This document shows, piece by piece, positions 403 to 53,688 of a DNA stretch of 59,257 bases. Source of the DNA: Candidatus Uhrbacteria bacterium RIFOXYB12_FULL_58_10. GTDB lineage: Bacteria > Patescibacteriota > Patescibacteriia > UBA9934 > GWF2-40-263. Position 1 is the stretch's first letter. Each line of letters opens with the position of its first letter. The notes below the pieces were generated by a model, which saw only the letters and a list, made by a program, of their open reading frames with translations, searched no databases and had not been told where the DNA came from. Position numbers and translations under genes: made by a program. The stretch spans positions 1 through 59,257 of the forward strand of contig CALRHL010000003.1 of the NCBI GenBank assembly GCA_943359455.1, read 5' to 3'.

Positions 403-1245
403 ATGATATATTTCTCGACTCCTTATGATCGTAATAATGCGATCATGAGTGAAACCACAACCGGAGATAAGCTCATGTTTGACTGGCTTAGGGCTCCAAA
501 GGAGCAGATACAAGCCTGGGACCAAATGCGCTCGTGTGCATCAGAGCTACCGATCCCTCCACCAACAGAACAGGAAACGGAAATTTCGATCGATCCTCTT
601 CTTGCAATCTGTCTTGCTCGTGGATACCATCAGTTCGCACAGGCGCCTGATGGAACGCGTGGGATGTCCAAGAAGGCGTATGCCGCGCTCTGGCCTCGTA
701 CTATCCGGATCAATGCAATGGAGATCCGGAACCATTCCAGTGCTCTGCTTGTTGATCGAACCATTTCACCAGAAGGACTATCGCGACTTGTCCCCTTGGA
801 GCTTCGTTCCGTCAAACCTGGAACCTGTCGAGATCGTGTTGCACCACCGTGTGACAGCGAAGAGAAACCGCTTCGTCGGTACATTGCTCTTATTACCTAT
901 GGACCCAGCCCCACTCATCGCGAGCTGACCACAACTGCCGACGAATATTGCGAACAGCTCCCTCCAGAAGTGACACCACTCGTTGCGATCGAAGCGGTCC
1001 ATGTGGCGGTCCAATACGGAGACAAGCTCTGTCGCTGGCACCTACGTAATGTTGGTCCCTATTCCATGCGTGTCCCTGGGACAACAGTAGGCACGGATGA
1101 AGTGATCTGTCTCAGACGCGACCATCATAGAAAGCTTCTCCTTGGAACATCCGGTCGTCGAATCTGCAACAACGAACCAGGACGTGAGATCAACGACTTC
1201 TGCGGGAATGCTTCACGACTCACACAGGTCATCCCTGTGCCGTGA
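403..1245 (+). CDS. hypothetical protein
   Basis: Longest ORF in this stretch (280 aa) and GC-richer than neighbouring genes. I see no recognisable motif, and the start codon is uncertain (alternative ATG at 445). Confidence 0.3.
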   Translation: MIYFSTPYDRNNAIMSETTTGDKLMFDWLRAPKEQIQAWDQMRSCASELPIPPPTEQETEISIDPLLAICLARGYHQFAQAPDGTRGMSKKAYAALWPRTIRINAMEIRNHSSALLVDRTISPEGLSRLVPLELRSVKPGTCRDRVAPPCDSEEKPLRRYIALITYGPSPTHRELTTTADEYCEQLPPEVTPLVAIEAVHVAVQYGDKLCRWHLRNVGPYSMRVPGTTVGTDEVICLRRDHHRKLLLGTSGRRICNNEPGREINDFCGNASRLTQVIPVP

Positions 1246-9316: not shown

Positions 9317-9352
9317 AGAGATCGCTGTAAATGTCAGTGATCTCTTTTTTTA
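9317..9352 (+). terminator. rho-independent terminator
   Basis: The stem is agagatcgctg/cagtgatctct (11 bp with one G-U pair) and the loop is taaatgt. A T7 run follows. Confidence 0.7.
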
Positions 9353-9356
9353 TTGT

Positions 9357-9416
9357 CTGAGCGAGCAAAGCGAGTCGAAGACCTTATCTGTCCTTCGACT
9401 CGCTTTGCTCGCTCAG
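9357..9416. repeat. perfect 24-bp-stem palindrome (ctgagcgagcaaagcgagtcgaag family)
   Basis: The left arm is 9357-9380, the loop is 12 nt, and the right arm 9393-9416 is the exact reverse complement. The same 24-mer recurs at 22900-22923. Confidence 0.85.
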
Positions 9417-9446
9417 GAAATAAACTGGTGATATACTAACTTTGCT

Positions 9447-22859: not shown

Positions 22860-22923
22860 TTCGACTACATTTGTGCTTTCACAAATGTAGTCGAATGTCC
22901 TGAGCGAGCAAAGCGAGTCGAAG
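22858..22923. repeat. 18-bp perfect hairpin abutting the tRNA-Ala 3' end, plus a solo copy of the ctgagcgagcaaagcgagtcgaag repeat
   Basis: cattcgactacatttgtg (22858-22875) pairs with cacaaatgtagtcgaatg (22880-22897). It is followed by the 24-mer at 22900-22923, identical to 9357-9380. Confidence 0.8.
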
Positions 22924-22986
22924 GGCCCAGGTTGTAAGTAACCGCTCATGGTCTTCGACCACCAAAATTGCTATACTTTCGTTGTT

Positions 22987-25837: not shown

Positions 25838-26373
25838 ACATGGCGAACGATCGTCTTGTGATCAACCGTATCAAAATCTGTTGTATCTACGATGATTGTC
25901 CGAGCTTTGAGTGGAAGTGGGATAAAACTTTTGTTGAAGAACCGTTCGTCAAACTCTGCGAGAACTTCTTCAAGAGCGTCATTATGTCCAGGATGTCGTA
26001 CGGTATTTGAACGTAAGATAAACCGCTCTCGGGCAACATGTGGATCTGTGGTCAGCCAAATCTGTACAAGATCCACTCCGTACCGCTGTGTTAACTCATG
26101 CAACCAATCCGCATCTGACAACCAAAGAAACGTTGCGTCTGCAATCACAGAGTCGCCGCGCTGCAAATGTAACTCGATACAGTCGCGAAATGCAGAAAAC
26201 GCAACGCGTCCGATTTCCTTTGACCACGCACGGTCACGATATCCAACCAAATCAAATAATGCTTCTTTCATTTCATCAAGCGAAACACGAGCGAACCCAG
26301 TTTCTTTGGCAATCATCGATGAGATCGTTGATTTACCTGTCGCCAGTGAACCACCAACAACAATAAGCTTCAT
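25825..26373 (-). CDS. P-loop kinase / AAA-family ATPase
   Basis: 182 aa with the Walker A motif GGSLATGKST. It overlaps the downstream gene by 13 nt. Confidence 0.6.
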   Translation of the reverse strand: MKLIVVGGSLATGKSTISSMIAKETGFARVSLDEMKEALFDLVGYRDRAWSKEIGRVAFSAFRDCIELHLQRGDSVIADATFLWLSDADWLHELTQRYGVDLVQIWLTTDPHVARERFILRSNTVRHPGHNDALEEVLAEFDERFFNKSFIPLPLKARTIIVDTTDFDTVDHKTIVRHVCDL

Positions 26374-26381
26374 AAAAATAC

Positions 26382-26439
26382 GTAAAAAGTAAAATGTAAA
26401 AAGGAAGGAATTCCTAACTTTTTACCTTTTACTTTTTAC
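26382..26439. repeat. cargo-less copy of the gtaaaaagtaaaa hairpin
   Basis: The sequence is gtaaaaagtaaaatgtaaaaagg aaggaattcctaac tttttaccttttactttttac. The apex contains the palindrome ggaattcc. The right arm supplies the last codons (VKSKR-stop) of gene 26422-27180. Confidence 0.8.
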
Positions 26440-27180
26440 ATTCTGGTAAATCTCTTCTGCAATCTTAAACTCCTCAGGGGTATTCACTCCAATCGATTCC
26501 TCAGGACGAATTTCTGATCCAGCGATTTCGTGTCCTTGCGTCACAGCCAGTTCAACAAGATCGGTAAGATAATATTCCCCTTTTGCATTCAAATTTTTAA
26601 GCTGAGAAATATTTTCCCAGAGCCACTTCGCATCAAAACAAAATAGAGCAGGATTGACTTCGCGAATCTGTTGCTCTGATTCCATCGCATCCTTATATTC
26701 GCGAATTCCCATAATATGGCCATGCAGATCTCGCAACACACGACCCCAGTGCAAAAAAATTCCATACCAATCATCAAAGGACGGAACAACAGTCGTCATC
26801 ATTGTGAGAACCGTCTGACTGTCTACGTGAATTTTTGTGAGACGTCGAAGCGCGTCTGGTGATACAAACGGATGATCCCCATACAAAACAATAACCGCAT
26901 CCGTTTCTCCGACGGCATCTTTTGCGCACATGACCGCATGCCCCGTTCCGAGTGGTTCCTCTTGAATTGCATAGTGGCATGTTTCCCCAAATGTCTCACA
27001 CACACCTTTTCCGTCAGAACTCACAACAACCACAGGAACACCGTCCACACCTGATTCAGTAATTGATTCAATCAGATGCTGTAAAATCGGCTTATTAGCA
27101 AGCGGCAGCAAAACCTTCGGTTTTTCCGATCCCATTCGCGTTCCTTTTCCTGCAGCTAAAATGACAGTTCGGAATTTCAC
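26422..27180 (-). CDS. sugar-phosphate nucleotidyltransferase (GlmU N-terminal-domain-like)
   Basis: 252 aa containing ILAAGKGTRMGS..KPKVLLPL. No left-handed-helix acetyltransferase domain is present. Confidence 0.8.
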   Translation of the reverse strand: MKFRTVILAAGKGTRMGSEKPKVLLPLANKPILQHLIESITESGVDGVPVVVVSSDGKGVCETFGETCHYAIQEEPLGTGHAVMCAKDAVGETDAVIVLYGDHPFVSPDALRRLTKIHVDSQTVLTMMTTVVPSFDDWYGIFLHWGRVLRDLHGHIMGIREYKDAMESEQQIREVNPALFCFDAKWLWENISQLKNLNAKGEYYLTDLVELAVTQGHEIAGSEIRPEESIGVNTPEEFKIAEEIYQNVKSKR

Positions 27181-27184
27181 ATTG

Positions 27185-27262
27185 GAGCTATTTAGCTTTT
27201 TAGCTATTTAGCTTGTTAGGAATCTCGCCTAAAAAGCTAAATAGCTAAACACCTAAAACTAG
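27185..27262. repeat. agctatttagctt tandem/inverted repeat hairpin
   Basis: The left arm 27199-27220 pairs with 27228-27249 around the loop aatctcg. A direct duplication of tagctatttagctt is also present. Confidence 0.7.
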
Positions 27263-27402
27263 CATCAGTTTACCCCCCAAACATCATCCAAGCAACCCCC
27301 ACAACAAACCCAAACGTAACGGCAAAGCCGTACTTTAGCACGACGCAAATCCAACATGTTTCCTCGTCCATAATGATCCCATTGTGCCTAAAAAAATGAC
27401 GC

Positions 27403-28593
27403 CTATTTGAACGCGTCCGTTCGCTCCGGCTTGAGGCGGTACGACTGCTTTTTGGTTATGAGCGTGATGATCTTCTGCACAGAAAAAGCGAGCACGATGA
27501 GCAGGATGGCATAGGCGATCCCCGTCTGACTCACGACCAAAACGGAATCTTTCTTTCCAACGGCCGTCAGGATCACATTCATCGTCGCAAGGAGTGTCAC
27601 AAGCTGGAGCGTTGAAACGGCCTTCTGCGTCGCCTGGTTCTGAAGACCATCAAACACAGCAATCGTCGCGTTCAGATAGTTCTGCGTCATGTCCCAAAGA
27701 TAACGGACATACTCGTGCGTATCAAGGAGAGTCTCGAACTTATACTCCAGGAAACGGTCGAGATATGCGTTAATCTTTTGTGCCGCCGCGACCTTTTGAC
27801 GGGTTCGGACGTACGCACCCATCTGGTCGATGCGAGCGTCGATCAGGTTAATAGTCTTCTGGTAATCAGCAAGATCGCTGCGATATTTCGACGTTTCCGA
27901 CCCGCTAAGTTTTGACCGTTCCTTGATCTTCGCGATACTCTCCCAAAGTTGGCGGTGGATGCCGAGATAGCGATGAAGCTGAGACTTGAACTCACGGAAA
28001 AAAATTTCGGACTCGACGATCCCGCAGACGAGCCGCTGCGGCGCCCCGTTGATGACGACAAGCTCATGGCCGCGGTACAGTCGCGTCCCCCTGGCTCCGA
28101 TGGAGGAATGGCATGTCTGACCGAGGGTGGAAAAAATGGTGCCGACGTCTCGTTCGTCCGCGTCCTCAACCGTCACGATGAACGGATAGATGGACTTGAT
28201 GGCGGCAAGCTCTTTTGGGACAGGAGCCCCCTTGCTGAACAGAAGCGAAAATGCCTTGGAAAGTTTGTTCTCGTAATAGTCCTTAATTTCGGCCTGATCC
28301 TTCTTCAAAGACGTGACGGGCTTCTCAAGCACAACGAGACCGTCCTCGTAAACGCGACAGACGATGCCGGCGTTCGTCGTGATCAGGACGCACTCGAGCA
28401 GGCCAGGCTGTCTCGACACGTCCCGGATTCCAAGCGAGGCGACGACCGTTCGAAGGCTGGCCGCGGAAATGTCTGTCGACGTTCCAGAGACATACGGATC
28501 AAACGCCCCCTCGCTGAGAAAATTCCAAATCTCTGTGAGATGCAACGTTGTGCGCTGAAACCATCCGCCTATATAAATCGTTTGAATTTCCAT
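27403..28593 (-). CDS. hypothetical membrane protein (two C-terminal TM segments)
   Basis: The start is moved to the ATG at 28593, which is preceded by GGAGGA. The first ATG of the ORF lies inside the rRNA terminator hairpin. I see no confident family assignment. Confidence 0.5.
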   Translation of the reverse strand: MEIQTIYIGGWFQRTTLHLTEIWNFLSEGAFDPYVSGTSTDISAASLRTVVASLGIRDVSRQPGLLECVLITTNAGIVCRVYEDGLVVLEKPVTSLKKDQAEIKDYYENKLSKAFSLLFSKGAPVPKELAAIKSIYPFIVTVEDADERDVGTIFSTLGQTCHSSIGARGTRLYRGHELVVINGAPQRLVCGIVESEIFFREFKSQLHRYLGIHRQLWESIAKIKERSKLSGSETSKYRSDLADYQKTINLIDARIDQMGAYVRTRQKVAAAQKINAYLDRFLEYKFETLLDTHEYVRYLWDMTQNYLNATIAVFDGLQNQATQKAVSTLQLVTLLATMNVILTAVGKKDSVLVVSQTGIAYAILLIVLAFSVQKIITLITKKQSYRLKPERTDAFK

Positions 28594-28631
28594 ATCCTCC
28601 ATTAGACTTATTAATCCTATTTTACCAGAAT

Positions 28632-28657
28632 TTCTTATAACAAAAAATACCCGCGTC
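28632..28657 (-). terminator. rho-independent terminator of the 23S-5S unit
   Basis: On the minus strand the stem is ccgcgtc/gacgcgg around a 3-nt loop, followed by gtaTTTTTT. It lies about 35 nt after the 5S gene. Confidence 0.7.
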
Positions 28658-28690
28658 AATGACGCGGTGTCTTTGTAAAGAATCTCATGG

Positions 28691-28800
28691 TCCTGGCGCC
28701 CACCTACTCTCGCGCAATCGCACTACCATCGGCCCCATGCGGCTTAACTGCTGTGTTCGGGATGGGAACAGGTGTGACCCGTTGGGAACTGGCACCAAGA
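28691..28800 (-). rRNA. rrf: 5S rRNA
   Basis: The reverse complement contains CCCATCCCGAACACAGCAGTTAAGCC...GCCGATGGTAGTG...GAGAGTAGG. Helix I closes, and it is extended by a 10-bp flanking stem (28681-28690 with 28801-28810). Confidence 0.9.
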
Positions 28801-29263
28801 CCATGAGATTCTTTTAACTAGATCCAGACTTCTGAAAACCTTCTAAAATCGATGAGATGTTGGCGCGCGGTGAGCAGCGGAGTAAGACGTACACGGATGT
28901 ACGTCGTCGAGCAGCGCAGACGCAAGCCGACAGATCGCGATTTTTGAAGGTTTTGATCCAAACTGATAGTGGTTGTAGAGTTCGACTTATTAGTACCACT
29001 CCGCTACACGTGTTACCACGCTTCGACGTATGGCCTATCAACCTGCTCGTCTCGCAGGAGTCTGATAACGAAGACTTATCTTAGGGTCGGCTTCGTGCTT
29101 AGATGCTTTCAGCGCTTATCCGAACCGAACACCGCTACCCGGCGATGCCCTTGGCAGGACAACCGGTACACAGGAGGTTCGTGCTTCTCGGTCCTCTCGT
29201 ACTAGAGAAGCATCCCTTCAATCTTCTAACGCCCATGGTAGATAGGAGACCGACATTCTGTTA

Positions 29264-30080
29264 CTTGCAAACCGCGTCAAAATTCTGAAATTGCACTGCG
29301 GTGTCCTGGACATTTCTGCCAGGATCTACATGTCGCCATGTAGTTCGGGCTATATCTTATCCGACACATCGTCGGACTCTAGCGTATAGTCTCTGAGGGT
29401 TCTAAATATGGTGAAATTTCTTACGATATCGTCCGTTTTGATTCATCCGATAAGCAATCTTTAGAAGCCTTTTTGCTCCTGCTTTATTTAGATGATGACC
29501 ATTGGCCATCTTCGTCACAATGTTTGCAAACAATGAAAAATCATTTGCTTTCTCTGTTTGCAATAGATGCTTTTGGAAGAACGGAATGATCTTTTTGAGA
29601 AGATCTTCGCGATCTCGAACAACGAACACATACGTCATGTCACGTGGATTTTTGGCATGATTTGCCTTCACATAACCGCAACCAAGAAATGGAACAAATG
29701 CGTCAAGCACTGCTCTACTACTCTCACGTTGACTGACATGAAATTCAGGAATGAACTTCACACCAACCTTCATGCGAGGATCTTGATAAACAGCAACGTG
29801 AAAGCTTCCTTCGCCATCCACGAAACCAACGATATAACCCGCTGATAACTTCTTCATATCTAGTCTTCCCTGCTGATTATCTGCACTCATCACTTTTTCA
29901 CGTATCAATCATCTAAATTTTACCACGTAGTGTGAGATTCTCCAACCTCCCATTCTCCAAGAGAGGCACCAGACCTTCCAGCATTTAGCTAGATTTTTGG
30001 ACAGCACGGTCGTCTGGCCGCTTTGGCCAGAGATATTTTTTTCGATAAGATTCTAACAGTCAGAAAACGTCGATATCTTT
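29264..30080 (-). mobile_element. group-I-like intron 1 in 23S (between U2604 and U2605 by my E. coli alignment)
   Basis: Exon GAGACAGT is followed by the intron, then exon TCGGTCTCCTATC. The 5' exon ends in U and the intron ends in G. It contains AAGATATAGCCCGA, matching the group I J8/7-P7 consensus. Confidence 0.8.
29402..29890 (-). CDS. LAGLIDADG homing endonuclease (single-motif, I-CreI-like size)
   Basis: It starts MSADNQQG... and carries the motif GFVDGEGSF. It is a paralog of the ORF at 32640-33155. Confidence 0.85.
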   Translation of the reverse strand: MSADNQQGRLDMKKLSAGYIVGFVDGEGSFHVAVYQDPRMKVGVKFIPEFHVSQRESSRAVLDAFVPFLGCGYVKANHAKNPRDMTYVFVVRDREDLLKKIIPFFQKHLLQTEKANDFSLFANIVTKMANGHHLNKAGAKRLLKIAYRMNQNGRYRKKFHHI

Positions 30081-30184
30081 ACTGTCTCACGACGTTCTGA
30101 ACCCAGCTCACGTACCGCTTTAATTGGCGAACAGCCAAACCCTTGGGAGCTTCTTCACCCCCAGGATGCGATGAGCCGACATCG

Positions 30185-31052
30185 CTGTCGGATTCCATGT
30201 TTTCACATGGCGCAGACTATATCTTCATCTTGCCTCGGATTACGTTCACACGTTGTAAACTTCATCTCGATAGGAATGGCAAGCGTCGGCGTGTTACCCC
30301 TTCGTTGTTGGAGTCTTCCCTTTCGGGTCAGTCGTTACGGGGTCATGACATAATTTATATCGGAAGCATGGGAGGACAAACGGTTCTACGAATCGGTGCA
30401 GAATTTGTGTTCCCTCTGTGGTCACACGAATCCGCTGATACTGTTTATCTCGATTGAGCCGTCCCTCGATACGGAAGGTTTTCCACAACAATTCAATGAG
30501 CCGTTTTTGATCGGTAAATTGAAACTGTTGAGTATTCAGGTAACAAGACGAGCGGCTTTTACTTCCGTCATCCATGTACCAGACAGCCAGACCTAATGCG
30601 CTAAGTTCAATATCATTTGGAATGATTTTTTTCGCCACGCGATAAAACCAATCATGATATTTCGTCAGCACAGGCATGCTTCTTGTGGTGAATCGATACG
30701 CAACACGTTGACCGTTTCCAAGACGGCGCGTTGGCGGGGAGTGGCTAATGGAGGAAAACACACCATATTTCCAATCAACGTATGCTTGTTGAGCATAACA
30801 ATGATTGACTTCGAGCAAAGCATTTCGATTGCCTTGTCGTCGAAGTGTTCCATCTCCAAGCAAACTTCCCACTAATACTTCATGTTGCAATTGTGTCAGA
30901 CTTCCCACGGTATTGCCGCGTGAAAATGCTTGCATATGTATGCAATTTTACCACTTTTCCACGGACGGTTCCACCGTTATAAGCCGTAATTTTTTGTACA
31001 GGATCACTCCTGTAGCACCCCGATATGTTCCTTTGTTATGGGAACGAGGTTA
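30185..31052 (-). mobile_element. group-I-like intron 2 in 23S (after U2500)
   Basis: Exon GGTTTGGCACCT is followed by the intron, then exon CGATGTCGGCTCATC. The boundaries show U at -1 and a terminal G. It contains GAAGATATAGTCTG. Confidence 0.8.
30294..30935 (-). CDS. LAGLIDADG homing endonuclease (double-motif)
   Basis: 213 aa with the motifs LLGDGTL and WYMDDGS. The C-terminus [14 protein letters not shown] is shared with the ORF at 31281-31946. Confidence 0.85.
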
Positions 31053-31280
31053 AGGTGCCAAACCGCATCGTCGCTGTGGACGCTTGGATGCGATCAGCCT
31101 GTTATCCCCGGAGTAGCTTTTATCCGATGAGCTTCCGCCGTCCTATTTCGTACGGTCGGATCACTAACTTCCGCTTTCGCGACTGCGCGACTTGTCGGTC
31201 TTGCAGTAAAGCTGGCTTCTGCGTTTGCACGTCCAGCGCGATTTCCATCCGCGCCAAGCCAACCTTTGTAAACGCCTCCG

Positions 31281-31946
31281 TTACCTTTTAGGCAATTGTG
31301 TTAACCATACCCTTGGAAGTTTATATCGCATGGAAGGCACCACGTACGGTTCAATGAGTTCAAGAAACTTTTCTACTGTCTCTGAAAGAAAGTAGAGCTG
31401 GTTTCCTGTGTCTTGCGGACGTAAAATGGTTTGAATACCATACACGTCTTGCAAAGCCTTTCGTAATCGCTTCAGATCTTGTTCTGAAAATGATTGCGTG
31501 TTCATGAACACGGTTTTGTGTGTGTTTGATTTGATGGATCCATCATCCATAAACCAGACAGCGAGTGCTTTCGGCGTCAACCAACGATGGATGAGCCGAG
31601 GCACATGCTTTCTTCCATTCGCGTAAAACTGCTTTGCATAGAAACGAAATGCGGAATGACTCAATGTGTTGAAACCGTATTTTTCATACGTCTTCACTAC
31701 ATCGCGAAATTTCACCTCTCGTGATCGTTTTTTGGGTGGAGTATTTGTCCACTCCTTAAACGCATCGTAGAGCCAGTCGACATATTCTATTTGCTTGATC
31801 GAATGATCAAGTTTTAGTCGATACGTCTGACCTTTATCCTGTGACTCAAGATGTCCGTCTCCTAAAAGAGTTCCGATGAGAATTTCTTTTTGAGAAGTCG
31901 TCAGCTTGAGCAACTGTTTTTTCTCTTCAATCTCTTTACTATGCAT
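31281..31946 (-). CDS. LAGLIDADG homing endonuclease (double-motif), reading frame ends inside the 3' exon
   Basis: 221 aa with the motifs LLGDGHL and WFMDDGS. The stop codon TAA lies within the exon sequence AAAGGTAACGG. Confidence 0.85.
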   Translation of the reverse strand: MHSKEIEEKKQLLKLTTSQKEILIGTLLGDGHLESQDKGQTYRLKLDHSIKQIEYVDWLYDAFKEWTNTPPKKRSREVKFRDVVKTYEKYGFNTLSHSAFRFYAKQFYANGRKHVPRLIHRWLTPKALAVWFMDDGSIKSNTHKTVFMNTQSFSEQDLKRLRKALQDVYGIQTILRPQDTGNQLYFLSETVEKFLELIEPYVVPSMRYKLPRVWLTQLPKR

Positions 31947-32258
31947 ATGTATGATCCCTAATAATTAGGGTCTTCAACTTTCGCTGAAGTTCAGACTGTA
32001 TCACGCTCCTCAAGTTGCTTGAGGAGACCCGGCGTTCAGTCGTTGAGGGGTCGCACCGAATAACCGGTCGACTTCCCTGCTGATTGTCCTGCGACCACAT
32101 TGGTCCGTGATGTTTGTTTCACGCGAGCTTCGCGTCAACATCACTTTTCCAGGAGGTTCCAGCATATAGCCAGATTTAGCACTCCGACATTACTGTCGAA
32201 GGGCCCCACGGAGACTCAACTCTCTTGCGAGAGTCGGTAACGGCTGAGTCTCCCTTAA
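31291..32258 (-). mobile_element. group-I-like intron 3 in 23S (about position 2262, just 3' of the P-loop)
   Basis: Exon GGGGCGGGTGCC is followed by the intron, then exon TAAAAGGTAACGGAGG. The boundary can slide by 4 nt because tgcc is repeated. It contains GTGATACAGTCTGAAC, a J8/7-like variant. Confidence 0.7.
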
Positions 32259-32565
32259 GGCACCCGCCCCAGGTAAACTACCCACCAGTTCCTGTCCCTG
32301 ACACCGGATTCACGGCGTCTGGTTAGAATTCACATAACGCAAGGGTGGTGTCTCATTGGTGCCTTGCGGCTCCCACCTACACTGAACAAGCGGAATATAA
32401 ACTCAAGAACAAGTTGTAGTAAAGCTTCACGGGGTCTTTTCGTCTAACCACGGGTAATGAGCATCTTCACTCATCTTGCAATTTCGCCGAGGACTACGTT
32501 GAGAGAGTCATAAACTCGTTATGCCATTCGTGCAGGACGGAACTCACCCGTCAAGGAATTTCGCT

Positions 32566-33287
32566 CAAGTGTTATCTCTAAATGAGATGGTCCGTTGAGT
32601 ATTGGACCCTGCATGTCACCATGCAGATCGGACTATATCTTATCCATCATTACTTGGACTCTGGCGTGTAGTCTCTGAGGATTCCAGAAATCGTGATGGA
32701 ACCTTTCGGTTCATCTGCTGGATTATTGTTGCCGCACTTCGAAGTCCTTGATCTGTTTTATGCAATCCGCGATCCATAAGATCGAGAATGTATACAAACT
32801 TTTCAAAGTCATCGTATTTCGCGGTACGTAATGGATAACGCATGAAAAACGGAACGATCTTCAAACGAAGGTCGCTTTGTGTTCTCACACAATATCGAAG
32901 CAACGATTCCCTGTGATTGTCATGGCGTCGGTTGATATAAATTCTTCCGCAGTCAAAGAATTCACGAATGAGTTCTAGACACGGTCGACTTTTCTCACCT
33001 TGCGTCACAACAAATTCAGGAAATAATTGCCATCCAGATCTCGTGGTTTTGTTTCGGATCATACTGACTGAGAAGCATCCTTCTCCATCAACAAACCCGC
33101 AAATCCACGAGGCGATTTCTGGCCTTTCCTGCTGATTGTCTGAGTTCTGTATCATACTATGGTTACATTATACCATAGAAGAACGAGATTCAGATGTTCC
33201 AGCATATAGCCAGATTTTTCTTTTACATCTTCGACGGCATATCGAAGTTCAAAGAGAGGACATTCACCTCACTAAGGCAAGCAATTC
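32566..33287 (-). mobile_element. group-I-like intron 4 in 23S (after U1931)
   Basis: Exon TCCTAAGGT is followed by the intron, then exon AGCGAAATTCCTTG. The boundaries show U at -1 and a terminal G. It contains TAAGATATAGTCCGA. Confidence 0.8.
32640..33155 (-). CDS. LAGLIDADG homing endonuclease (single-motif)
   Basis: 171 aa starting MIQNSDNQQER, with the motif GFVDGEGCF. The stop codon abuts the J8/7-like GATATAGTCC. Confidence 0.85.
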   Translation of the reverse strand: MIQNSDNQQERPEIASWICGFVDGEGCFSVSMIRNKTTRSGWQLFPEFVVTQGEKSRPCLELIREFFDCGRIYINRRHDNHRESLLRYCVRTQSDLRLKIVPFFMRYPLRTAKYDDFEKFVYILDLMDRGLHKTDQGLRSAATIIQQMNRKVPSRFLESSETTRQSPSNDG

Positions 33288-34131
33288 ACCTTAGGACGAT
33301 TATAGTTATCGCCGGCGTTCATCCGCGCTTCAGTCGAAGGCTACCCCCCGCCTTGCGGCGGGGATGACCCCCTTCTTTAACGTTCGGACACTGGCCAGGC
33401 ATCAGCCCGTATACATCATCTTTCGATTTAGCACGGACCTGTGTTTTAGGTAAACAGTCGGTTTATGTCTTTCGCTGCGGGTCTTCTCCTCCCGGAGAAA
33501 ACCAGGCCTTATCCCGAAGTTACGGCCACTTAATTGCCGAGTTCCTTAACGTAGTTTCTCTCGTACACCTTGGCACATTACGCGCCCACCCACCTGTGTC
33601 GGTTTCCGGTACGGGTCTACTTATGATTAGCCCTAGCGGCTTTTCTAGGCTCCATGTCCTTTCCCCTCGAGAGCATTGCTGCCCCCTTGCGATCACACCC
33701 GAGTTTAACGATTGGCGGATTTGCCTACCAATCACCAAGATGTGCCCAGCGCTATAGCCATAGAACGTGGGAAATTTCACGAAGCGTCCCCGCTTCAGTC
33801 ATAAACAGAGTGCAGGAATATTAACCTGCTGTGCATCGGCTACGCCGTTCGGCCTCGCCTTAGCTCCCGACTCACCCTGGGTCGATTCTCGTTGCCCAGG
33901 AAACCTTGGGTTTACGGTGAAGGGGACTCTCACCCCTTTTCATGCTACTTATGCCTACATTCTCACTTCGCAACGCTCCACGGCGTGGTCACCCAGCCGC
34001 TTCAGCGCGATGCGAATGCTTCCCTACCGCTCCGACGTTACGTCGGAGCCCTCAGCTTCGGTACGTTGTTTGAGCCCCGGTACATTTTCGGCGCAGAAAA
34101 GCTTGACCAGTGAGCTGTTACGCTATCTTTA

Positions 34132-34169
<38 letters not shown>

Positions 34170-35667
34170 AGCCTTTCCACCACCTTTCACACTTAACAAC
34201 GATTTAGGGACCTTAGATTGAGATCTGGGCTGTTGCCCTTTCGACGTATGGAGCTTAGCCCCCATCGTCTGACTGCCGGCCGGTAAACTGGTATTCGGAG
34301 TTTGATTAGGACACCTACCTTGCGGCGGTGATCCCGTTCAGTGCTCTACCCCCAGTTTAACAATACGCCGACGCTAGCCCACAAGCTATCTCGGGAAGAA
34401 CCAGCTATTACCCAGTTCGATTGGAATTTCTCCGCTAACCACAGCTCATCCCCCAGTTTTGCACAGCTGGTGGGTGCGGCCCTCCACGACCTGTTACAGT
34501 CGCTTCAGCCTGGCCATGGCTAGATCACCGGGTTTCGGGTCGTGTATATGCCACCATCTCATCATGTACTCAAAACACCATTGCTGATGCGTCGAGTACA
34601 AAATGAGAACACGCGGGTTAACGCTCGCTTTCACTACGGCTTCGTCCCAGAGGACTTAACCAAGCGACATACAGCACACTCGTAGGCTCATTCTTCAATA
34701 GGAACGCCATCACCCAGCTTGCGCCAGGCTCTGACTCCTTGTAAGTATACGGTTTCAGAACTATTTCATTCCCCTCCCGGGGTATTTTTCAGCTTTCCCT
34801 CACGGTACTTGTTCACTATCGATCAAAACACGTATTTAGCCTTACCACATAGTCGCGGTAGCTTCCCACAGGATTTCTCGGGTCCCGTGGTACTTAAGAA
34901 AAATCACAATGATGAGAGAAAATATTTCGCGTACAGGACTTTCACCTTCTTTGGTGCCACTTTCCAGAGGCTTCCCCTATACATTCTCTCGATCACCGAT
35001 GCCTGGAAGGACATCACGTAATCCTCTTACAACACTTCTGCTGCAACGGCTTCCACCTTTCACTGCCGAAAACTTCAGAACTTGCGTTCATCCACCTTCA
35101 ACAACTTCACAACAAAAGTTTAGGCTGTTCCCCTTTCATTCGCCACTACTTAGGGAATGGACTCACACAATGAATTCATATGTGCGAGTAATATCTTTTT
35201 CTTTTCCTCTGGGTACTGAGATGTTTCACTTCCCCAGGTGCCTTTCTATAACCTATGTATTCAGTTATAGATGATGCGGCATTCCCCGCACCGGGTTACC
35301 CCATTCGGACATCTCCGGATCAAAGGTTGCTTGCCACCTCCCCGAAGCTTTTCGCAGGCTGCTACGTCCTTCATCAGCATGTTTTGTCGAGCCATCCTCC
35401 GTATACTCTTATTCCTCTACAACCACTATCAATTCAGATCGGACAATCACATTTGGCGATCTTTTGATTCACGATTTCGTCACTCGTTCACCGTACATCT
35501 TTTGTACGCCTCACTTCGTTCCTCATCCTTCATCAAAATCTCATCCAAATCTGATCGTCCTCCACAGGGGTTAGAATTCTGTGTCTTAAATAAATAGGAT
35601 TGACTTACTATCAATATTTTTATTTGGATCTAGTTGTTCAATTGTGAACGATCTCGGACGACACTTT

Positions 35668-35833
35668 ACAGGGACCTCTACGGAAGGACAGTACGAGGAC
35701 AAATCGAGTCAGGTTCGTGCCAGACACATGAACGATTTTGAAGACGATATGGAGGTATCGTCGAAAAAGCGTGAATGTGTCTGGTGCGAACATGGACGAT
35801 TTGGAGCCGTGCTGGACTTTCGTAGAGGTCCCG
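35668..35833. other. 165-nt imperfect hairpin in the predicted rRNA leader
   Basis: Paired segments are gggacctctacg/cgtagaggtccc, gtgccagacacat/atgtgtctggtgc and gacgata/tatcgtc at the apex. The two arms are roughly three-quarters complementary overall. Confidence 0.6.
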
Positions 35834-35936
35834 ACATACATAAAACCGCGATGTTGCACGCGGCCTTCTCTCCATCCCTCAAGAGACTATCAGACGGTTC
35901 TCGGGACAAAGAAGGTGTCAGTCGTTTGTGCGCGCA

Positions 35937-35965
35937 ATTTTATAGGAAGTGGAAAAGGAAGTCAA
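35937..35965 (-). promoter_or_regulatory. candidate sigma-70 promoter for the 23S-5S unit (TTGACT-17-TAAAAT)
   Basis: The minus-strand hexamers lie at 35965-35960 and 35942-35937 with a 17-nt spacer. The site is upstream of the leader hairpin and of the leader/trailer pairing. Confidence 0.5.
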
Positions 35966-36005
35966 GGGTTCTGTCCACGAGGTGTCCACAGCTAGATTTC
36001 ATTGC

Positions 36006-36621
36006 TTAAAACATTAACCAAATATCCAATAAACGCTGTTGATCTGATCCATTCCAGCCTGTTCTTAATAACCCACTGTATGATGCACAAATAGACTGAA
36101 ATTGCTCACGTTCTAATTGATTATCAAGCAGATTGTGAATAGCGATATTCACATTTCTCCACAATCGCTGTCGTGTTGTTGGCCGTAAGATTCGGTATTC
36201 TGGAAATAAAACATGCCCAAGCCAGTCGATTCCATGTTTATAAGGATGGATCAGACACTTGCGTGGGTGTAATTCAATGTGAAGAACTTGTCGAACAAAT
36301 AATCGAATCGTGGACAAGTAAAGCCGTCGTCCCTTTTCCTTTCCGGCAAGACCAACTGTCGAAAACGAATCCGCGATCGAATATGGGTTCAATCACTCGG
36401 ACAAGTGCGTGATGGACGATCCGATCCTCCACAGAAGCCTTATGAATCTCGCGAGGCTTTGGATCACAGACAATCATGCGAGTATACTCTCCATGTCTCC
36501 ATTCACCTGAATGCAGTCGGTCATGTAAATCGAACAGATGATCTTCAATGTCTCTTCCGTAATCTAAAACGTCCTGACGTTGACGTTTCCCTTTGCAAAA
36601 CTTCTTCCATGCCGCAAACAA
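36006..36621 (-). pseudogene. DGR-type reverse transcriptase remnant (internal deletion plus frameshift)
   Basis: Two overlapping frames are present. The N-terminal part reads FAAWKKFCKGKRQRQDVLDY...DPKPREIHKASVEDRIVHHALVRVIEPIFD..FDSWSCRKGKGT. The C-terminal part reads LHIELHPRKCLIHPYKHGIDWLGHVL. There is no YxDD or other catalytic core, and the total is about 205 codons against more than 300 expected. Confidence 0.7.
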
Positions 36622-36688
36622 ATTTTCGAGACTAATAATTCTTTCAAATAATGATCTACTATGTCTACCCCCCCCCCGCCATGTTCCG

Positions 36689-37033
36689 TTGTTCTATCGA
36701 ATCTATGACTTGCTTGTTTGGTGGCATGTTCATACAAAACGGTTTCCAAAGTCAGAACGTTACACGATCGCAACACGAATGTTTGAGCTTTTACTTGAAG
36801 CACTGATTGGAATAATGAAGTCAGAATTTTCGCAACAAATTGAAAAGCTAAATCAATTAGAGCGAACCGTTACACCAAATATTAACGCGGCCAAAATTCT
36901 TGTTCGACTCGCACATAGTCTTGAACTGATTTCTGAACAAAAATATATTCAAGTTGAATGTGAACTGAATGAAATTGGAAAAATGCTCGGTGCTTGGATT
37001 CGCAATATCCAACAAGCCAAAAGCCCTCATTGA
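36689..37033 (+). CDS. avd: Avd-like four-helix-bundle accessory protein (start uncertain; possibly frameshifted at a C10 tract)
   Basis: The protein reads PLFYRIYDLLVWWHVHTKRFPKSERYTIATR...NEIGKMLGAWIRN, typical of the Avd/23S-IVS family. There is no in-frame ATG near the N-terminus. TTG 36689 is in frame, while ATG 36661 is off by one frame across the C10 tract. Confidence 0.65.
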   Translation: MFYRIYDLLVWWHVHTKRFPKSERYTIATRMFELLLEALIGIMKSEFSQQIEKLNQLERTVTPNINAAKILVRLAHSLELISEQKYIQVECELNEIGKMLGAWIRNIQQAKSPH

Positions 37034-37047
37034 GGGGGCTTTTGGAC

Positions 37048-37166
37048 ATCTGCACTTCGGACGAACACAACCCCCAAGTCAGAATTCCTGTTCTCAGGAT
37101 TCCACCTGTTCACGTTCGCGCCGTCCGCGTCCGCGTGACCGACGTTCACGAGATTCCCATCAGAGT
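37048..37166 (-). repeat. DGR template repeat (TR)
   Basis: It aligns without gaps to 37380-37498. On the minus strand it encodes KRRNSDGNLVNVGHADADGANVNRWNPENRNSDLGVVFV with 8 AAC/AAT codons. Confidence 0.85.
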
Positions 37167-37375
37167 TGCGTCTTTTCCTGTTGCCTAACCAGAACTCAGG
37201 AGGCAAGTTGAAAACAATTCACCTCTTACAAGACAAAACAACAGGAAGCAGTACAGATCTGATTTGAATGTAGGTAAACCAATCCACACGTGGTGGTGAT
37301 TCTATTAACCTACTGCTGTATTTTACGGTCAAGAGTTCAAGGTGACAAGAGTTAAGGGTTCGGACAAATCTGAAA

Positions 37376-38431
37376 CTAGCGGACGAACACAACCCCCCAG
37401 CCAGAATCCCCGTCCTCAGGATGCCACCTGCCCACGTCCGCGCCGTCCGCGTCCGCGCGACCGACGCCCACCAGGAACCCGCCAGAGCTGCGCCTTCTTG
37501 TCCAAGCGTAATGGCTTAAAAGATGTCTGGCATTTGTAGTGTTAAATCTTATAAGAGTATCGTAGATTGCTTCTGCAGGGGTTTGTCTTGTAAGCACAGA
37601 GATTTGGAGTGCTTCGAATTCTTCGGCGACTTTTTCCCAGTCGGATGAAATACGTCTAGTGAGATCTGCTTTCTTGGATTCGAATTCTGCGATAGCGGAT
37701 TTGTAAGGTTCAGGAATTTCTTGGTTTGTTCTATCAGCGGAAGAAAAAACAGTGTTTCTTAGATAATCTACTATTATTTCTGTTTGTTCTACGTAGTTTT
37801 TGTTTGTGGAATCTGGGAGGACTTCTTTAGAAACGAGTGACCAACGCATGACTGGGGTTTCTTCTGTGTAGAACGGTTCGTTTTTGTACCAATCCGTATC
37901 AAAAAAAACTTTTCCTTTTTTGTTCTTCTTAAACTTCGGTGTCATGATCTCACCCATCTTTTTCATGGTGAGAGGTTGTCCATCTGGTGCTTTGTCTATG
38001 CGAAGGACAAGGAACTGGTTCTGTTCCTTGGCTCGTTCGAGTTCTGCTTTGGAGAAAAGGATGGGTGGGATGTCTTTTGTTTCGAGTTTTGTTCCAAAAG
38101 TGTTTTCAACAGCAGATGGTCCAAAGACGTTTTCTTGTCCTAGAATCTCGACGGCTTCTTTAAGCTGTTTTTCAGAGAATGTTATTCTTTCCTCCTCTTC
38201 GAACGCTTTGAGCTCTGAGGGAGGGATGTTATCTTTTTCAAATGCAAAAAGAAGGTGTTTGCAGAGCTTTCCAAAGTGTTTTACATCTTCGAGAGTCATT
38301 TCCTCTGATAACACGAGAGATTGAAGCTGTTCTGGATGAGTTTTGTTGTATTTCTTTACGAGAACAGCGAGTTGATCGGTGAGATTATCAACATAGCTCC
38401 CTACCTTGGGAGAAAGGTCTGCTTTACGCAT
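37376..38431 (-). CDS. DGR target (variable) protein, C-terminal C-type-lectin-like VR region
   Basis: 351 aa with no signal peptide. The C-terminus reads HYAWTRRRSSGGFLVGVGRADADGADVGRWHPEDGDSGWGVVFVR and is encoded by the VR. Confidence 0.8.
   Translation of the reverse strand: MRKADLSPKVGSYVDNLTDQLAVLVKKYNKTHPEQLQSLVLSEEMTLEDVKHFGKLCKHLLFAFEKDNIPPSELKAFEEEERITFSEKQLKEAVEILGQENVFGPSAVENTFGTKLETKDIPPILFSKAELERAKEQNQFLVLRIDKAPDGQPLTMKKMGEIMTPKFKKNKKGKVFFDTDWYKNEPFYTEETPVMRWSLVSKEVLPDSTNKNYVEQTEIIVDYLRNTVFSSADRTNQEIPEPYKSAIAEFESKKADLTRRISSDWEKVAEEFEALQISVLTRQTPAEAIYDTLIRFNTTNARHLLSHYAWTRRRSSGGFLVGVGRADADGADVGRWHPEDGDSGWGVVFVR
37380..37498 (-). repeat. DGR variable repeat (VR) at the 3' end of the target gene
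   Basis: There are 21 mismatches to the TR, and 17 lie at TR adenines on the coding strand. All 8 Asn codons of the TR are replaced, giving S, F, G, D, G, H, D and D. Confidence 0.85.
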
Positions 38432-39576: not shown

Positions 39577-40239
39577 TTATTTTTTCAGAATCTTCGACTG
39601 CAACTTCTTAATTTCGTCCAAATAGAATCCCTGCCATTCCGAGGCTGGTACATCGAGAATCATCCGCGGCATGTCTGGAGCGTTCTTCGCCTTGTAGAAT
39701 TGCGTGACCAACTGCAGTGGATCAATATGATAGTCGAACTTCATCCGAGCCTTCGCGATTAAATCAGTAATCTTATATCCCTGTTTGCGACAAAGACAGT
39801 ACAGATCAATGTAATCACGAGCCTTCGTGCGCTGGTAAATCGTGAATAACTTGTTCACGGCAATGTCGATCATGCTCTCTGTCTCGATCCCGAAATGGAC
39901 TGGGCCAGTTTCAATGCGTGGAAACGGAAAATAGGTGAACTCGGCCTTGAGCACACCTCTTTCTAGTTGAAAGAAGAACATGTTCCTGTTGTAATTTTGT
40001 TGTGCATCGATTTTCAAAATACCAAGATCGGCTTTTACGTCATGCCAGAAAGCGTTGAGCGTGGAAATATCTACTTCCTGCTCCGAAAAAAAATCCAGAT
40101 CTTCAGAATATCTGTGCCACAAATAAAATGCTGCCAACGGTGTACCGCCAGTCAGATAGAATCGCTCAGTGAGGAAAGGAGTTTTTCCAATCCGTTCCAA
40201 AAAAGCGACTTGGTCTTGCGTGAGAATCTGATTATCCAT
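39577..40239 (-). CDS. AbiEii/DUF1814-like nucleotidyltransferase (type IV TA toxin family)
   Basis: It starts MDNQILTQDQVAFL and contains YLTGGTPLAAFYLWHRYSEDLDFF. It overlaps the upstream small ORF by 8 nt. Confidence 0.7.
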   Translation of the reverse strand: MDNQILTQDQVAFLERIGKTPFLTERFYLTGGTPLAAFYLWHRYSEDLDFFSEQEVDISTLNAFWHDVKADLGILKIDAQQNYNRNMFFFQLERGVLKAEFTYFPFPRIETGPVHFGIETESMIDIAVNKLFTIYQRTKARDYIDLYCLCRKQGYKITDLIAKARMKFDYHIDPLQLVTQFYKAKNAPDMPRMILDVPASEWQGFYLDEIKKLQSKILKK

Positions 40240-40426
40240 GCAACAAAAATGCAAGAACGCTTTTGCGGTGAGGATCAAGTGTGAGACGATCCCAATACTT
40301 CAAAAGGGCTGTTGTGCTTAGCTTTTCGTCGTTCAATCCAAAATTGACCATCTGTTCCAGCTTCCAAATGGCATGTGCTTCTGGATCATTTTTCAACGCT
40401 TCCTCGTCGGTTGACCAATTGTACAT
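40232..40426 (-). CDS. small protein coupled to the AbiEii-like gene (candidate cognate antitoxin)
   Basis: 64 aa, overlapping the downstream gene. I recognise no domain. Confidence 0.45.
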   Translation of the reverse strand: MYNWSTDEEALKNDPEAHAIWKLEQMVNFGLNDEKLSTTALLKYWDRLTLDPHRKSVLAFLLHG

Positions 40427-53181: not shown

Positions 53182-53688
53182 ATGGACGCAGAAACGAAAC
53201 AATTAATTATCAGTACCGCTAAAAACGTTGAGATTTTGCTATCAGACGTTAGTGAGTTGAAGTCAGAAGTTAGTGAGTTGAAGTCAGACGTTAGTGAGTT
53301 GAAGTCAGACGTTAGTGAGTTGAAGTCAGATGTTAGTGAGTTGAAGTCAGATGTTAGTGAGTTGAAGTCAGATGTTGGAATAATGAAAACAGAAATAGAC
53401 ACGTTGCAGTCAGATGGAAAAATCGTAAAAGATACCGTTCACCACATGTCACATCAGATTGATTTTCTTCAATTTGATCTGTCTGCATTTCGAAAGGAGA
53501 CAGATGTCAATTTTACTCTCGTTCGTGGTGAGTTTACACGTCTAGAAAACCATCTCGATGGATTTGCTTGCTCTTCTAAACGTTTTGATGTTGAAGATGC
53601 TGCTATGCGTCATCGCCAGGATCGACTTGAGAAAAAATTAAATAGGTACGCACCTAAATCGCACAAGGTAAAAACAACGTCTAAATAA
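53182..53688 (+). CDS. coiled-coil protein with a heptad tandem repeat (D/E)VSELKS x6
   Basis: 168 aa. The repeat region is followed by a further coiled-coil-like sequence. Confidence 0.65.
   Translation: MDAETKQLIISTAKNVEILLSDVSELKSEVSELKSDVSELKSDVSELKSDVSELKSDVSELKSDVGIMKTEIDTLQSDGKIVKDTVHHMSHQIDFLQFDLSAFRKETDVNFTLVRGEFTRLENHLDGFACSSKRFDVEDAAMRHRQDRLEKKLNRYAPKSHKVKTTSK
53245..53379 (+). repeat. 21-bp tandem repeat, six full copies plus a partial copy
   Basis: The unit is ga(c/a/t)gttagtgagttgaagtca, starting at 53245 with a period of 21. It is in frame and differs only at the third base of the unit. Confidence 0.9.

Follow-up and report, generated by a model that had tools for sequence, protein, structure and literature searches.

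Organization of the locus

The window, by which we mean the whole 59,257-nucleotide stretch of DNA analyzed here, carries the parts of a diversity-generating retroelement (DGR), which are listed in Table 1. On the minus strand, an intact target gene that ends in the variable repeat (VR) is followed by a spacer, the template repeat (TR) and the remains of a reverse transcriptase (RT) gene. The accessory gene avd separates the TR from the RT remains; it is encoded on the opposite strand and has the same orientation in all relatives. This layout, target(VR) - spacer - TR - (avd, reverse) - RT, recurs in at least 20 related loci, and each part of the locus has a homolog in intact DGRs of related Patescibacteria. 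The intact ortholog used for most comparisons below is L042.

Table 1. Features of the DGR locus (positions are those of the window)
Feature	Position	Strand	Description or basis
RT pseudogene, C-terminal fragment	36006..36310	minus	Motif 7 and thumb; different frame from the N-terminal fragment
RT pseudogene, N-terminal fragment	36311..36682	minus	Finger motifs 1-2a; ends ...SCRKGKGTTA
G10 tract (C10 on plus)	36668..36677	minus	Directly after ATG 36682-36680; 11 nt from the avd start codon
avd (accessory variability determinant)	36689-37033	plus	~114 aa, TTG start, intact; PF22296
GC-rich hairpin with A-run and T-run on its flanks	37019..37043	both, terminator-like	Terminator scan
Motif CCGAAGTGCAG	37050..37060	minus	TR 3' end and flank; also in L003, L007 and L042
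TR	37058-37176	minus	119 nt, 29 A, eight AAY codons; no long ORF
VR-TR spacer	37177..37379	minus	Alignment A5; blastn to L008, L009 and L042
VR	37380-37498	minus	Last 39 codons of the target ORF
DGR target gene	37376..38431	minus	351 aa, intact; ORF list

Genes for 23S (35408->28982) and 5S rRNA lie downstream of the DGR on the same strand. A preliminary description of this DNA placed the DGR directly upstream of the 23S-5S unit. The location is correct, but it is no property of the element, because the relatives of this DGR occupy unrelated contexts; one related contig has neither the DGR core nor the rRNA unit at the corresponding place.

The product of avd, the accessory gene in most DGRs, matches the bAvd family PF22296 with 58.8 bits (cutoff 40). 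It is 66% identical in amino acid sequence to its L042 counterpart, with no stops and a dN/dS of 0.17. The avd stop codon sits in the loop of the GC-rich hairpin, whose predicted folding energy is -18 kcal/mol (z = -2.1), and four related loci have hairpins of differing sequence at the same position. No GC-rich hairpin was found downstream of the VR (z = +2.9). The spacer between the VR and the TR is kept in relatives, even beside target paralogs that have no TR. It includes a promoter-like site (37348->37320), and the count from the promoter scan is no higher than chance for the region.

The template and variable repeats

The TR and VR form a gap-free direct repeat of 119 nt at an offset of 322, with 21 mismatches. 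Seventeen of these mismatches fall on minus-strand adenines of the TR, which make up 29 of its 119 bases (Fisher p = 1.2e-9). The changes are concentrated in the first and second positions of the AAY codons, and all eight AAC/AAT codons of the TR are altered in the VR. Fourteen of the 17 adenine changes are A-to-G, and G-to-A changes number zero. The preliminary description had correctly given the length, the lack of gaps, both mismatch counts, the translations of the two repeats and the replacement of all eight codons, but its TR coordinates (37048-37166) are wrong by 10 nt. At the offset of 332 that these imply, the two stretches fail to align.

Homology between the repeats ends exactly at 37380/37058. 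The 3'-terminal 18 nt of the VR are free of adenine and are the same in the TR; they form a candidate IMH-like block, with its IMH* counterpart in the TR. The TR is contained in an ORF of only 59 aa. The TRs of L003, L005 and L042 are homologs in which its adenine positions are kept. No second repeat of the TR/VR type was found in the 59-kb window. A repeat at 8619/9545 was considered as such a pair and rejected, as it is an ordinary pair of paralogs with mismatches in all directions.

These data bear on whether the locus is a DGR at all or simply a duplicated piece of a gene whose copies drifted apart by chance. A-to-G transitions, the class to which 14 of the 17 adenine changes belong, are common in neutral drift too. 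However, chance divergence is contradicted by the strict direction of change (14 A-to-G against no G-to-A), by the preference for the first two positions of AAY codons, by the A-to-G bias shared by intact homologous DGRs, and by the occurrence of Avd and RT remnants at their canonical positions; the ordinary paralog repeat also fails to show such a pattern. We give this reading almost no weight and regard it as already refuted by the evidence listed. The identification of the locus as a DGR thus stands on adenine-specific divergence, a C-terminal VR, a bAvd gene and RT remnants of the DGR clade.

The target protein

The 351-aa target ORF (37376-38431, minus strand) is intact and the VR makes up its last 39 codons, as had been proposed. 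Residues ~86-351 of the product (~265 aa) correspond to a conserved VR-bearing C-terminal module, across which an AF2 model has a pLDDT of >90, and the ~85 aa that precede it are helical or modeled with low confidence. Selection differs along the gene, with a dN/dS of 0.15-0.2 outside the VR versus 0.6-1.1 inside it.

The protein was previously said to have no signal peptide and no recognizable domains, and our results agree. It has no hydrophobic segment (maximum of 0.34 in a Kyte-Doolittle window of 19 residues), and Pfam gave no match for the target or for any of 80 Patescibacteria homologs. Likewise, Pfam scans of all 42 family members left the target module without a significant match. 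The DGR variable proteins Mtd, TvpA and AvpA display their VR on a C-type-lectin (FGE-sulfatase-like) fold. The suggestion that the C-terminus of the target might adopt such a fold gained no support from Foldseek, profile or Pfam searches. Foldseek comparison of the model with the PDB and BFVD yielded nothing below E = 0.03, and the FGE, EgtB and SenA chains that turned up repeatedly did so only with E > 1 and a probability of 0.12 or less. A profile search of PDB sequences with the target module also gave no significant match.

No database record was found for the target's own protein sequence. Its family comprises 2204 clusters at 50% identity in Patescibacteria, none of them annotated. Family members frequently have the VR module fused to AAA_5 ATPases, and the protein in the window is a short form.

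A deletion in the reverse transcriptase gene

An RT-like gene and an Avd gene were originally thought to complete the cassette. The Avd assignment holds (PF22296), but the RT gene is actually two out-of-frame fragments that have lost the catalytic core, and the cassette is therefore incomplete. The N-terminal fragment aligns with residues 6-121 of bRT (8ub7_A; E = 3.9e-18), its best match among solved structures, and the C-terminal fragment aligns with bRT residues 235-305. Homology of the N-terminal fragment stops near 36323, and the deletion junction lies at 36310-36323.

Alignment with L042, which is 78.5% identical in nucleotide sequence on both sides, reveals a clean 350-nt gap in the RT gene of the window (alignments A1 and A4). 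Motifs 3-5 of the RT, with the LGxxxSQ and YxDD boxes among them, are lost in this gap, and the thumb is left out of frame; L042 encodes these motifs within the stretch that is deleted here. Similarly, ~115 residues of six intact CPR RTs (331-352 aa), including LKCDI, PLGNLTSQ and YLRYxDD, have no counterpart in the window. The DGR-specific motif 4 ([ILV]GxxxSQ) and the catalytic YxDD are absent from the window and present in L042 and six other homologs. No other RT was found in the 59-kb window by tblastn with RT queries. Judging from its coding content, the element as encoded at this locus cannot carry out mutagenic homing.

The two fragments are 83% (N-terminal) and 64% (C-terminal) identical in amino acid sequence to the RT of L042, and their closest homologs are RTs in TR/avd cassettes (the DGR clade). 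Because they contain no internal stops and have a dN/dS of ~0.13-0.14 relative to L042, the RT was probably lost recently relative to the split from that lineage. A short RT-like protein (P0125, locus L044) was considered as a second deletion allele and rejected, since it comes from a contig with many fragmented genes and is uninformative.

The RT deletion is known from one assembled sequence, and the 350-nt gap might be an error of assembly, or a variant carried by a minority strain, in which case the DGR of the real population would be intact and active. The assembly is evidently of the metagenome type, and L042 carries a 6-nt direct repeat (ATTCGA) whose copies lie 352 nt apart, at about both edges of the gap, which could promote a genuine slippage deletion or strain heterogeneity. 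However, it is rare for an assembler to drop unique sequence, both flanks keep their collinearity with L042, and the TR/VR mismatches outside adenine positions, described below, independently indicate inactivity. We consider this explanation very unlikely. Exact-pattern scans of metagenome contigs for a degenerate target 3' region and for the avd/RT junction returned zero matches.

Current and former states of the element

Four of the 21 TR/VR mismatches in the window are not at adenines. In intact relatives, all mismatches within the repeats are at adenines (16/16 in L003, 11/11 in L007, and 15/15 between the L042 TR and the L001 VR). At two of the four non-adenine sites, the VR is identical to the TR of L042 and the TR of the window differs, so it is the TR that has drifted there. 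At the other two, the TRs of the window and L042 agree against the VR, so the VR has drifted. Taken together, the four mismatches point to drift that would have occurred after the last homing event. Three of them are grouped in the 5' part of the VR, however, and partial cDNA integration could instead have left older differences in that part, which would run counter to inactivation.

In our assessment, the locus is very probably a chromosomal CPR DGR of the layout described above that has been recently inactivated. With the catalytic core of the RT lost, the VR is probably now a frozen allele subject to ordinary point mutation.

The locus retains an intact target, TR and avd, and an intact TR together with an avd gene under purifying selection is also to be expected if an RT acts in trans. 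Under a rival reading, the cassette is still active, served by an intact DGR RT whose gene lies beyond the 59-kb window and which works with this TR and Avd. The closest genome, GCA_964471375.1, has a single RT core (L042) and, at other places in the genome, three target paralogs (L008-L010) with no core next to them; the VR of L001, which comes from another sample, departs from the L042 TR at adenines only. From these two observations, action in trans looks normal in the clade, and DGRs acting in trans have been documented (PMC8632793). Nevertheless, the window contains no second RT, two non-adenine TR positions have changed without being copied to the VR, and the distant RT would need to be matched to this TR RNA and Avd. 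We judge continued activity in trans to be unlikely, and recent inactivation remains our preferred reading.

Established DGR biology and the local anatomy suggest how the intact element might have worked. A short TR RNA would have been made from the minus strand, ending at the hairpin that it shares with the convergent avd gene. A complex of RT and Avd would then have reverse-copied this RNA, misincorporating opposite template adenines, with mostly A-to-G changes as the outcome in this lineage. The resulting cDNA would have taken the place of the final 119 nt of the target gene. In this manner, up to ~20 residues of a C-terminal binding surface could have been recoded, and the scaffold codons that lack adenine would have stayed fixed.

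A conserved poly-G tract at the start of the RT gene

The G10 tract is the sole G/C run of at least 8 in the window, and runs of G8-G13 are present at the same avd/RT junction in ~10 distinct related loci. In the window and in L042 alike, the sole ATG is offset by one base from the RT reading frame across the G10 run. This frame problem was considered as a second RT lesion and rejected because the intact ortholog carries the identical sequence. Perhaps the tract is a slippage-prone switch that controls RT output by way of transcription, translation or phase variation of the DNA, although we propose this only tentatively and think it rather improbable. If true, hypermutation in this CPR DGR lineage would be turned on and off stochastically. 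The conserved tract is the sole lead of wider interest at this locus.

Implications

The locus is an ordinary, recently inactivated DGR of a well-described class. It provides a clear, dated case of DGR death, in which the TR, avd and target outlive a deleted RT core and the first non-adenine differences build up in both the TR and the VR. It also calls for caution with DGR finders, where elements are called from a TR/VR signature plus any RT match. The target adds one more member to a very large Patescibacteria family of VR-bearing modules. Neither this example of DGR death nor the addition to the family alters what is known of DGRs.

Comparison with known systems

The window avd lies ~1.3 kb upstream of the 23S rRNA gene, and the 23S rRNA intervening-sequence protein (PF05635) belongs to a four-helix-bundle family related to Avd. 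A tie between the two was considered and rejected, because PF05635 scores 17.1 bits, below its cutoff of 33.8, and the contexts of the relatives differ. Unlike intervening-sequence proteins, the window gene lies outside the rRNA and is part of a DGR cassette in all relatives, and its adjacency to the rRNA gene is coincidental.

The DGR of Bordetella phage BPP-1 (mtd-avd-TR-brt) resembles the window element in its adenine-specific differences, C-terminal VR, PF22296 Avd and bRT-like RT. In contrast to that phage-borne system, the window DGR is chromosomal, its avd is downstream of the TR on the opposite strand, its VR is not followed by a GC-rich inverted repeat, its target is unrelated in sequence to Mtd, and its RT is predicted to be inactive.

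NTPase-linked DGR targets have been proposed to be intracellular antigen sensors in multicellular bacteria (PMC10907252). As summarized there, these are similar to the family of the window target in fusing an N-terminal P-loop ATPase (here AAA_5) to a VR and in having no secretion signal. They differ in that the window protein itself lacks an ATPase domain, and in the class of ATPase and the host lineage. Fusions of a VR module with AAA/Midasin-like ATPases, which are frequent in the family, also resemble the 'UVR4' or category g1 targets of PMC5758913 and may correspond to them.

The DGRs of CPR bacteria, to which Roux et al. 2021 (PMC8144416) give the name 'DGR clade 2', are also among the closest counterparts. 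The window departs from these in that its RT is a deletion pseudogene and four of its 21 TR/VR differences are off adenine. CPR targets are reported to be without a transmembrane segment or recognizable domain, and the window target is alike. Architecture B3, TR-(avd)-RT, which places a reverse-strand avd between the TR and the RT, is typical of CPR DGRs (Wu et al. 2018, PMC5758913), and the window matches it in part order, orientation and host group.

Adenine-specific divergence of the repeat pair

The window holds one gap-free direct repeat pair, the template repeat (TR) and variable repeat (VR) of a diversity-generating retroelement (DGR), and no further copies of this 119-nt repeat were found in the window. 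On the minus (coding) strand the two repeats differ at 21 positions, 17 of which are A in the TR (14 A-to-G, two A-to-T, one A-to-C). With A occupying 29 of 119 TR nucleotides, the enrichment of mismatches at A is strong (Fisher p = 1.2e-9), and all eight AAC/AAT codons of the TR are altered in the VR. These counts, the translations of both repeats, and the assignment of the VR to the final 39 codons of an intact open reading frame of 351 aa agree with the preliminary description. Its VR coordinates also stand. However, it placed the TR at 37048-37166, which is 10 nt too low, and at the offset thereby implied the two stretches do not align.

The remaining four mismatches are informative when compared with L042, an intact orthologous DGR core. 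The VR and the L042 TR both carry C at TR positions 17 and 23, where the window TR carries T; the alignment identifies these as TR changes that never passed into the VR. For positions 26 and 100, the window TR equals that of L042 and the VR carries CTG for CTC (synonymous) and TGG for TTG (Leu to Trp), respectively, so the same comparison identifies changes in the VR.

TRs are homologous across the related loci, with A positions kept. Every TR/VR mismatch inside the repeat at intact loci falls at A, and most are A-to-G: 16 of 16 in L003, 11 of 11 in L007, and 15 in L005, which has three more at the repeat edge. Between the L042 TR and the VR of L001, a target locus from a different sample, 15 of 15 mismatches are at A. 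Because intact loci share the A-to-G bias, it is a trait of the lineage rather than the product of ordinary transitions.

An intact avd gene and a broken reverse transcriptase

The Avd-family gene proposed earlier is borne out by its PF22296 match; its product scores 17.1 bits against PF05635 (23S_rRNA_IVP), below the cutoff of 33.8. The gene lies between the TR and the reverse transcriptase (RT) remnant, convergent with the former and divergent from the latter, and it is intact (dN/dS = 0.17). The "RT-like gene" said to complete the cassette is instead two fragments in different frames that lack the catalytic core. The upstream fragment matches residues 6-121 of the Bordetella phage RT (8ub7_A; E = 3.9e-18) and the downstream fragment residues 235-305, and neither matches Pfam RVT_1. 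Six intact homologs (331-352 aa, all PF00078) carry ~115 extra residues between these positions, including LKCDIxKYF, PLGNLTSQLFAN (DGR-type motif 4), and the catalytic box YLRYxDDF.

The L042 core (contig CAYYFM010000045.1, assembly GCA_964471375.1), reached through the RT match P0085, shows what the gene has lost. It aligns at 78.5% identity to window positions 37387->36323 and picks up again at 36310->36166; in the MAFFT alignment the window has one clean gap of 350 nt. The L042 reading frame continues through this stretch, which encodes all three RT motifs. A loss of 350 nt is not a whole number of codons, so the RT thumb is also out of frame. A 6-nt direct repeat in L042 (ATTCGA), with copies 352 nt apart at about both gap edges, hints at deletion by slippage. 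Neither RT fragment has a stop codon, and their dN/dS against L042 is 0.13-0.14; therefore the loss is recent relative to the split between the two loci. Broken RTs also occur in a few other relatives (L018, L019, L020, L022, and L033).

The locus, which had been proposed to be a DGR, is genuinely one by descent, as its adenine-specific divergence, Avd, and RT remnants attest, and it has been caught shortly after loss of its RT. Together, the four non-A mismatches and the missing catalytic core are consistent with a VR whose last rewriting lies some time back. An unlikely rival explanation is that an intact RT elsewhere in the genome still serves the window TR in trans. No other RT was detectable in the 59 kb of the window. 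The closest public genome, assembly GCA_964471375.1, contains one intact core, L042, and at least three of its target paralogs (L008-L010) have no core next to them. Moreover, the L001 target also lacks an adjacent core, and its VR departs from the L042 TR at A positions only. In this clade, then, it seems normal for these elements to act in trans, which leaves room for the rival explanation. Two metagenome scans for the window locus returned no matches, and the window's own target protein had no record on look-up. The closest genome, with L008, L009, L010, and L042, carries the label "uncultured Gammaproteobacteria", which is probably a submission default because its gene content and homologs put it among the Patescibacteria.

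The target protein

Outside the VR, dN/dS values of 0.15-0.2 show purifying selection on the target (versus 0.6-1.1 inside). A word-seeded search found 80 homologs, and an exhaustive profile search gave a family of 2204 clusters at 50% identity (E <= 1e-3). Members with a named source mostly bear Patescibacteria (CPR) labels (Parcubacteria, Paceibacterota, Magasanikbacteria, Berkelbacteria, and Saccharibacteria), and a few metagenome-assembled genomes bear others. The conserved unit, equivalent to residues ~86-351, is always C-terminal. Short forms of ~300-360 aa resemble the window target, and long forms of 550-1150 aa, such as the 889-aa L003 target, have AAA_5 ATPase domains in 7 of 10 scanned.

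A Pfam scan of 42 family members gave no match in any, a PDB sequence search with the target gave nothing significant, and no hydrophobic segment was found in it. The AF2 model has a mean pLDDT of 85, rising above 90 for residues 86-351. No Foldseek match to this model was better than E = 0.03. Chains with FGE-sulfatase-like folds (FGE, EgtB, and SenA) turn up repeatedly, but always at E > 1, and so a C-type-lectin fold is plausible at most. CPR clade-2 targets typically lack recognizable domains or transmembrane segments, and their domains are expected to be new C-type-lectin variants (Roux et al. 2021, PMC8144416).

The proposed TR transcript and the avd/RT junction

The TR ends in a CCGAAGTGCAG motif common to L003, L007, and L042; the conserved form at the TR 3' end is CCGAAG(T/G)GCAG. 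In five loci, this motif is followed ~10-25 nt further on by a stable hairpin set between an A-run and a T-run. Its stem sequence varies between loci (folding energies of -18 to -24 kcal/mol, z = -0.65 to -6), and the window loop contains the avd stop codon. The hairpin looks like, and probably is, a bidirectional terminator for two convergent units, the TR RNA and avd. If so, the TR RNA of an intact element would be made as its own short transcript ending at the hairpin, separate from that of the RT. The conserved VR-TR spacer has a promoter-like site (37348->37320), although such sites are no commoner in this region than expected by chance. No inverted repeat was found after the VR; a repeat of this kind is reported for only 34% of DGRs (Wu et al., PMC5758913).

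The only ATG at the start of the RT is offset by one base (+1) from the frame of the RT ORF, and no canonical start codon occurs in the RT frame upstream of the conserved first helix. Because the sequence is identical in intact L042, this offset is not a decay lesion. Just after the ATG is a G10 run, and poly-G tracts occur at this junction in about 10 distinct related loci. Among the 467 kb of window and fetched loci, 13 of 16 G/C runs of 8 or more are at the avd/RT junction, all 13 being G on the RT strand and 8 to 13 long. We found no report of homopolymer tracts with DGRs in the literature searched. The tract could serve in slippage or phase switching, or as an RNA element.

Features of the locus and equivalent elements in related loci
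Feature	Position	Strand	Remarks
Target gene	37376-38431	minus	intact ORF, 351 aa; VR at C-terminus
VR	37380-37498	minus	last 39 codons of target ORF
TR	37058-37176	minus	direct repeat, 119 nt; offset 322 to VR
TR-end motif; hairpin	37050-60; 37019-43		
Motif and hairpin, related loci	L042 ~350-400; L003 ~4630-4680; L005 ~4590-4650; L007 ~430-480		
avd	36689-37033	plus	PF22296 bAvd, 58.8 bits (cutoff 40)
G10 run	36668-36677	minus (RT strand)	just after only ATG, 36682-36680
Poly-G tracts, related loci	L003 5017; L005 4975; L007 814; L017 3572; L030 3900; L031 6647; L033 7546; L042 738; L043 1474		
23S rRNA gene	35408->28982	minus	five matched segments split by insertions
LAGLIDADG endonuclease ORFs	29402-29908; 30294-30935; 31281-31946; 32640-33155		four, in 23S insertions
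Group I intron match	31972-32221		in 23S gene

Genomic context

Interrupted 23S genes like that of the window are typical of CPR bacteria. Two of the insertions have 3' sequence in common (29326-29414 and 32609-32696), a 5S gene follows on the same strand, and the window contains no 16S gene. The DGR had been described as lying directly upstream of this 23S-5S unit, yet related cores sit in unrelated neighborhoods, and thus the adjacency is not a DGR feature. Indeed, in contig L009 (1002-1030) of the closest genome, the target paralog and spacer run directly into a homolog of window 25841->22966, without the 11.4 kb (window 25841-37205) that holds the TR, avd, RT, 23S, 5S, and three further genes. 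For both the L008 (~7218) and L009 paralogs, homology ends at one shared point ~25 nt ahead of the TR, which marks the edge of the DGR core unit.

Several other elements were observed in the window. A 36-nt inverted repeat (35671-35706/35797-35832; 78% complementary, arms 90 nt apart) lies past the end of the RT remnant and before the 23S 5' end, and it is a possible leader or processing stem of the rRNA. The gene at 39577-40278 (minus; PF08843, E = 2e-18), for an AbiEii-type nucleotidyltransferase toxin, lies ~1.1 kb from the target gene start, and a small upstream ORF (40232-40426) could be its partner. Within the ORF at 53182-53688, a 21-nt unit encoding 7 aa occurs seven times in tandem (53221-53409). 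A GC-rich palindrome of 30-32 nt that includes CTGAGCGAGCAAAGCGAGTCGAAG is found in two intergenic regions 13 kb from each other (9349-9424 and 22895-22924) and looks like a repeated terminator-like element.

Relationship to known CPR elements

The order target(+)-VR, TR, avd(-), RT(+) is repeated in L003-L007, L042, and L043, and also in target-family loci of GTDB genomes with an RT nearby. This part order matches the layout that Wu et al. (2018, PMC5758913) named "B3, TR-(avd)-RT" and found in 90% of their CPR set. By descent, the window element is an ordinary member of this well-described CPR class.
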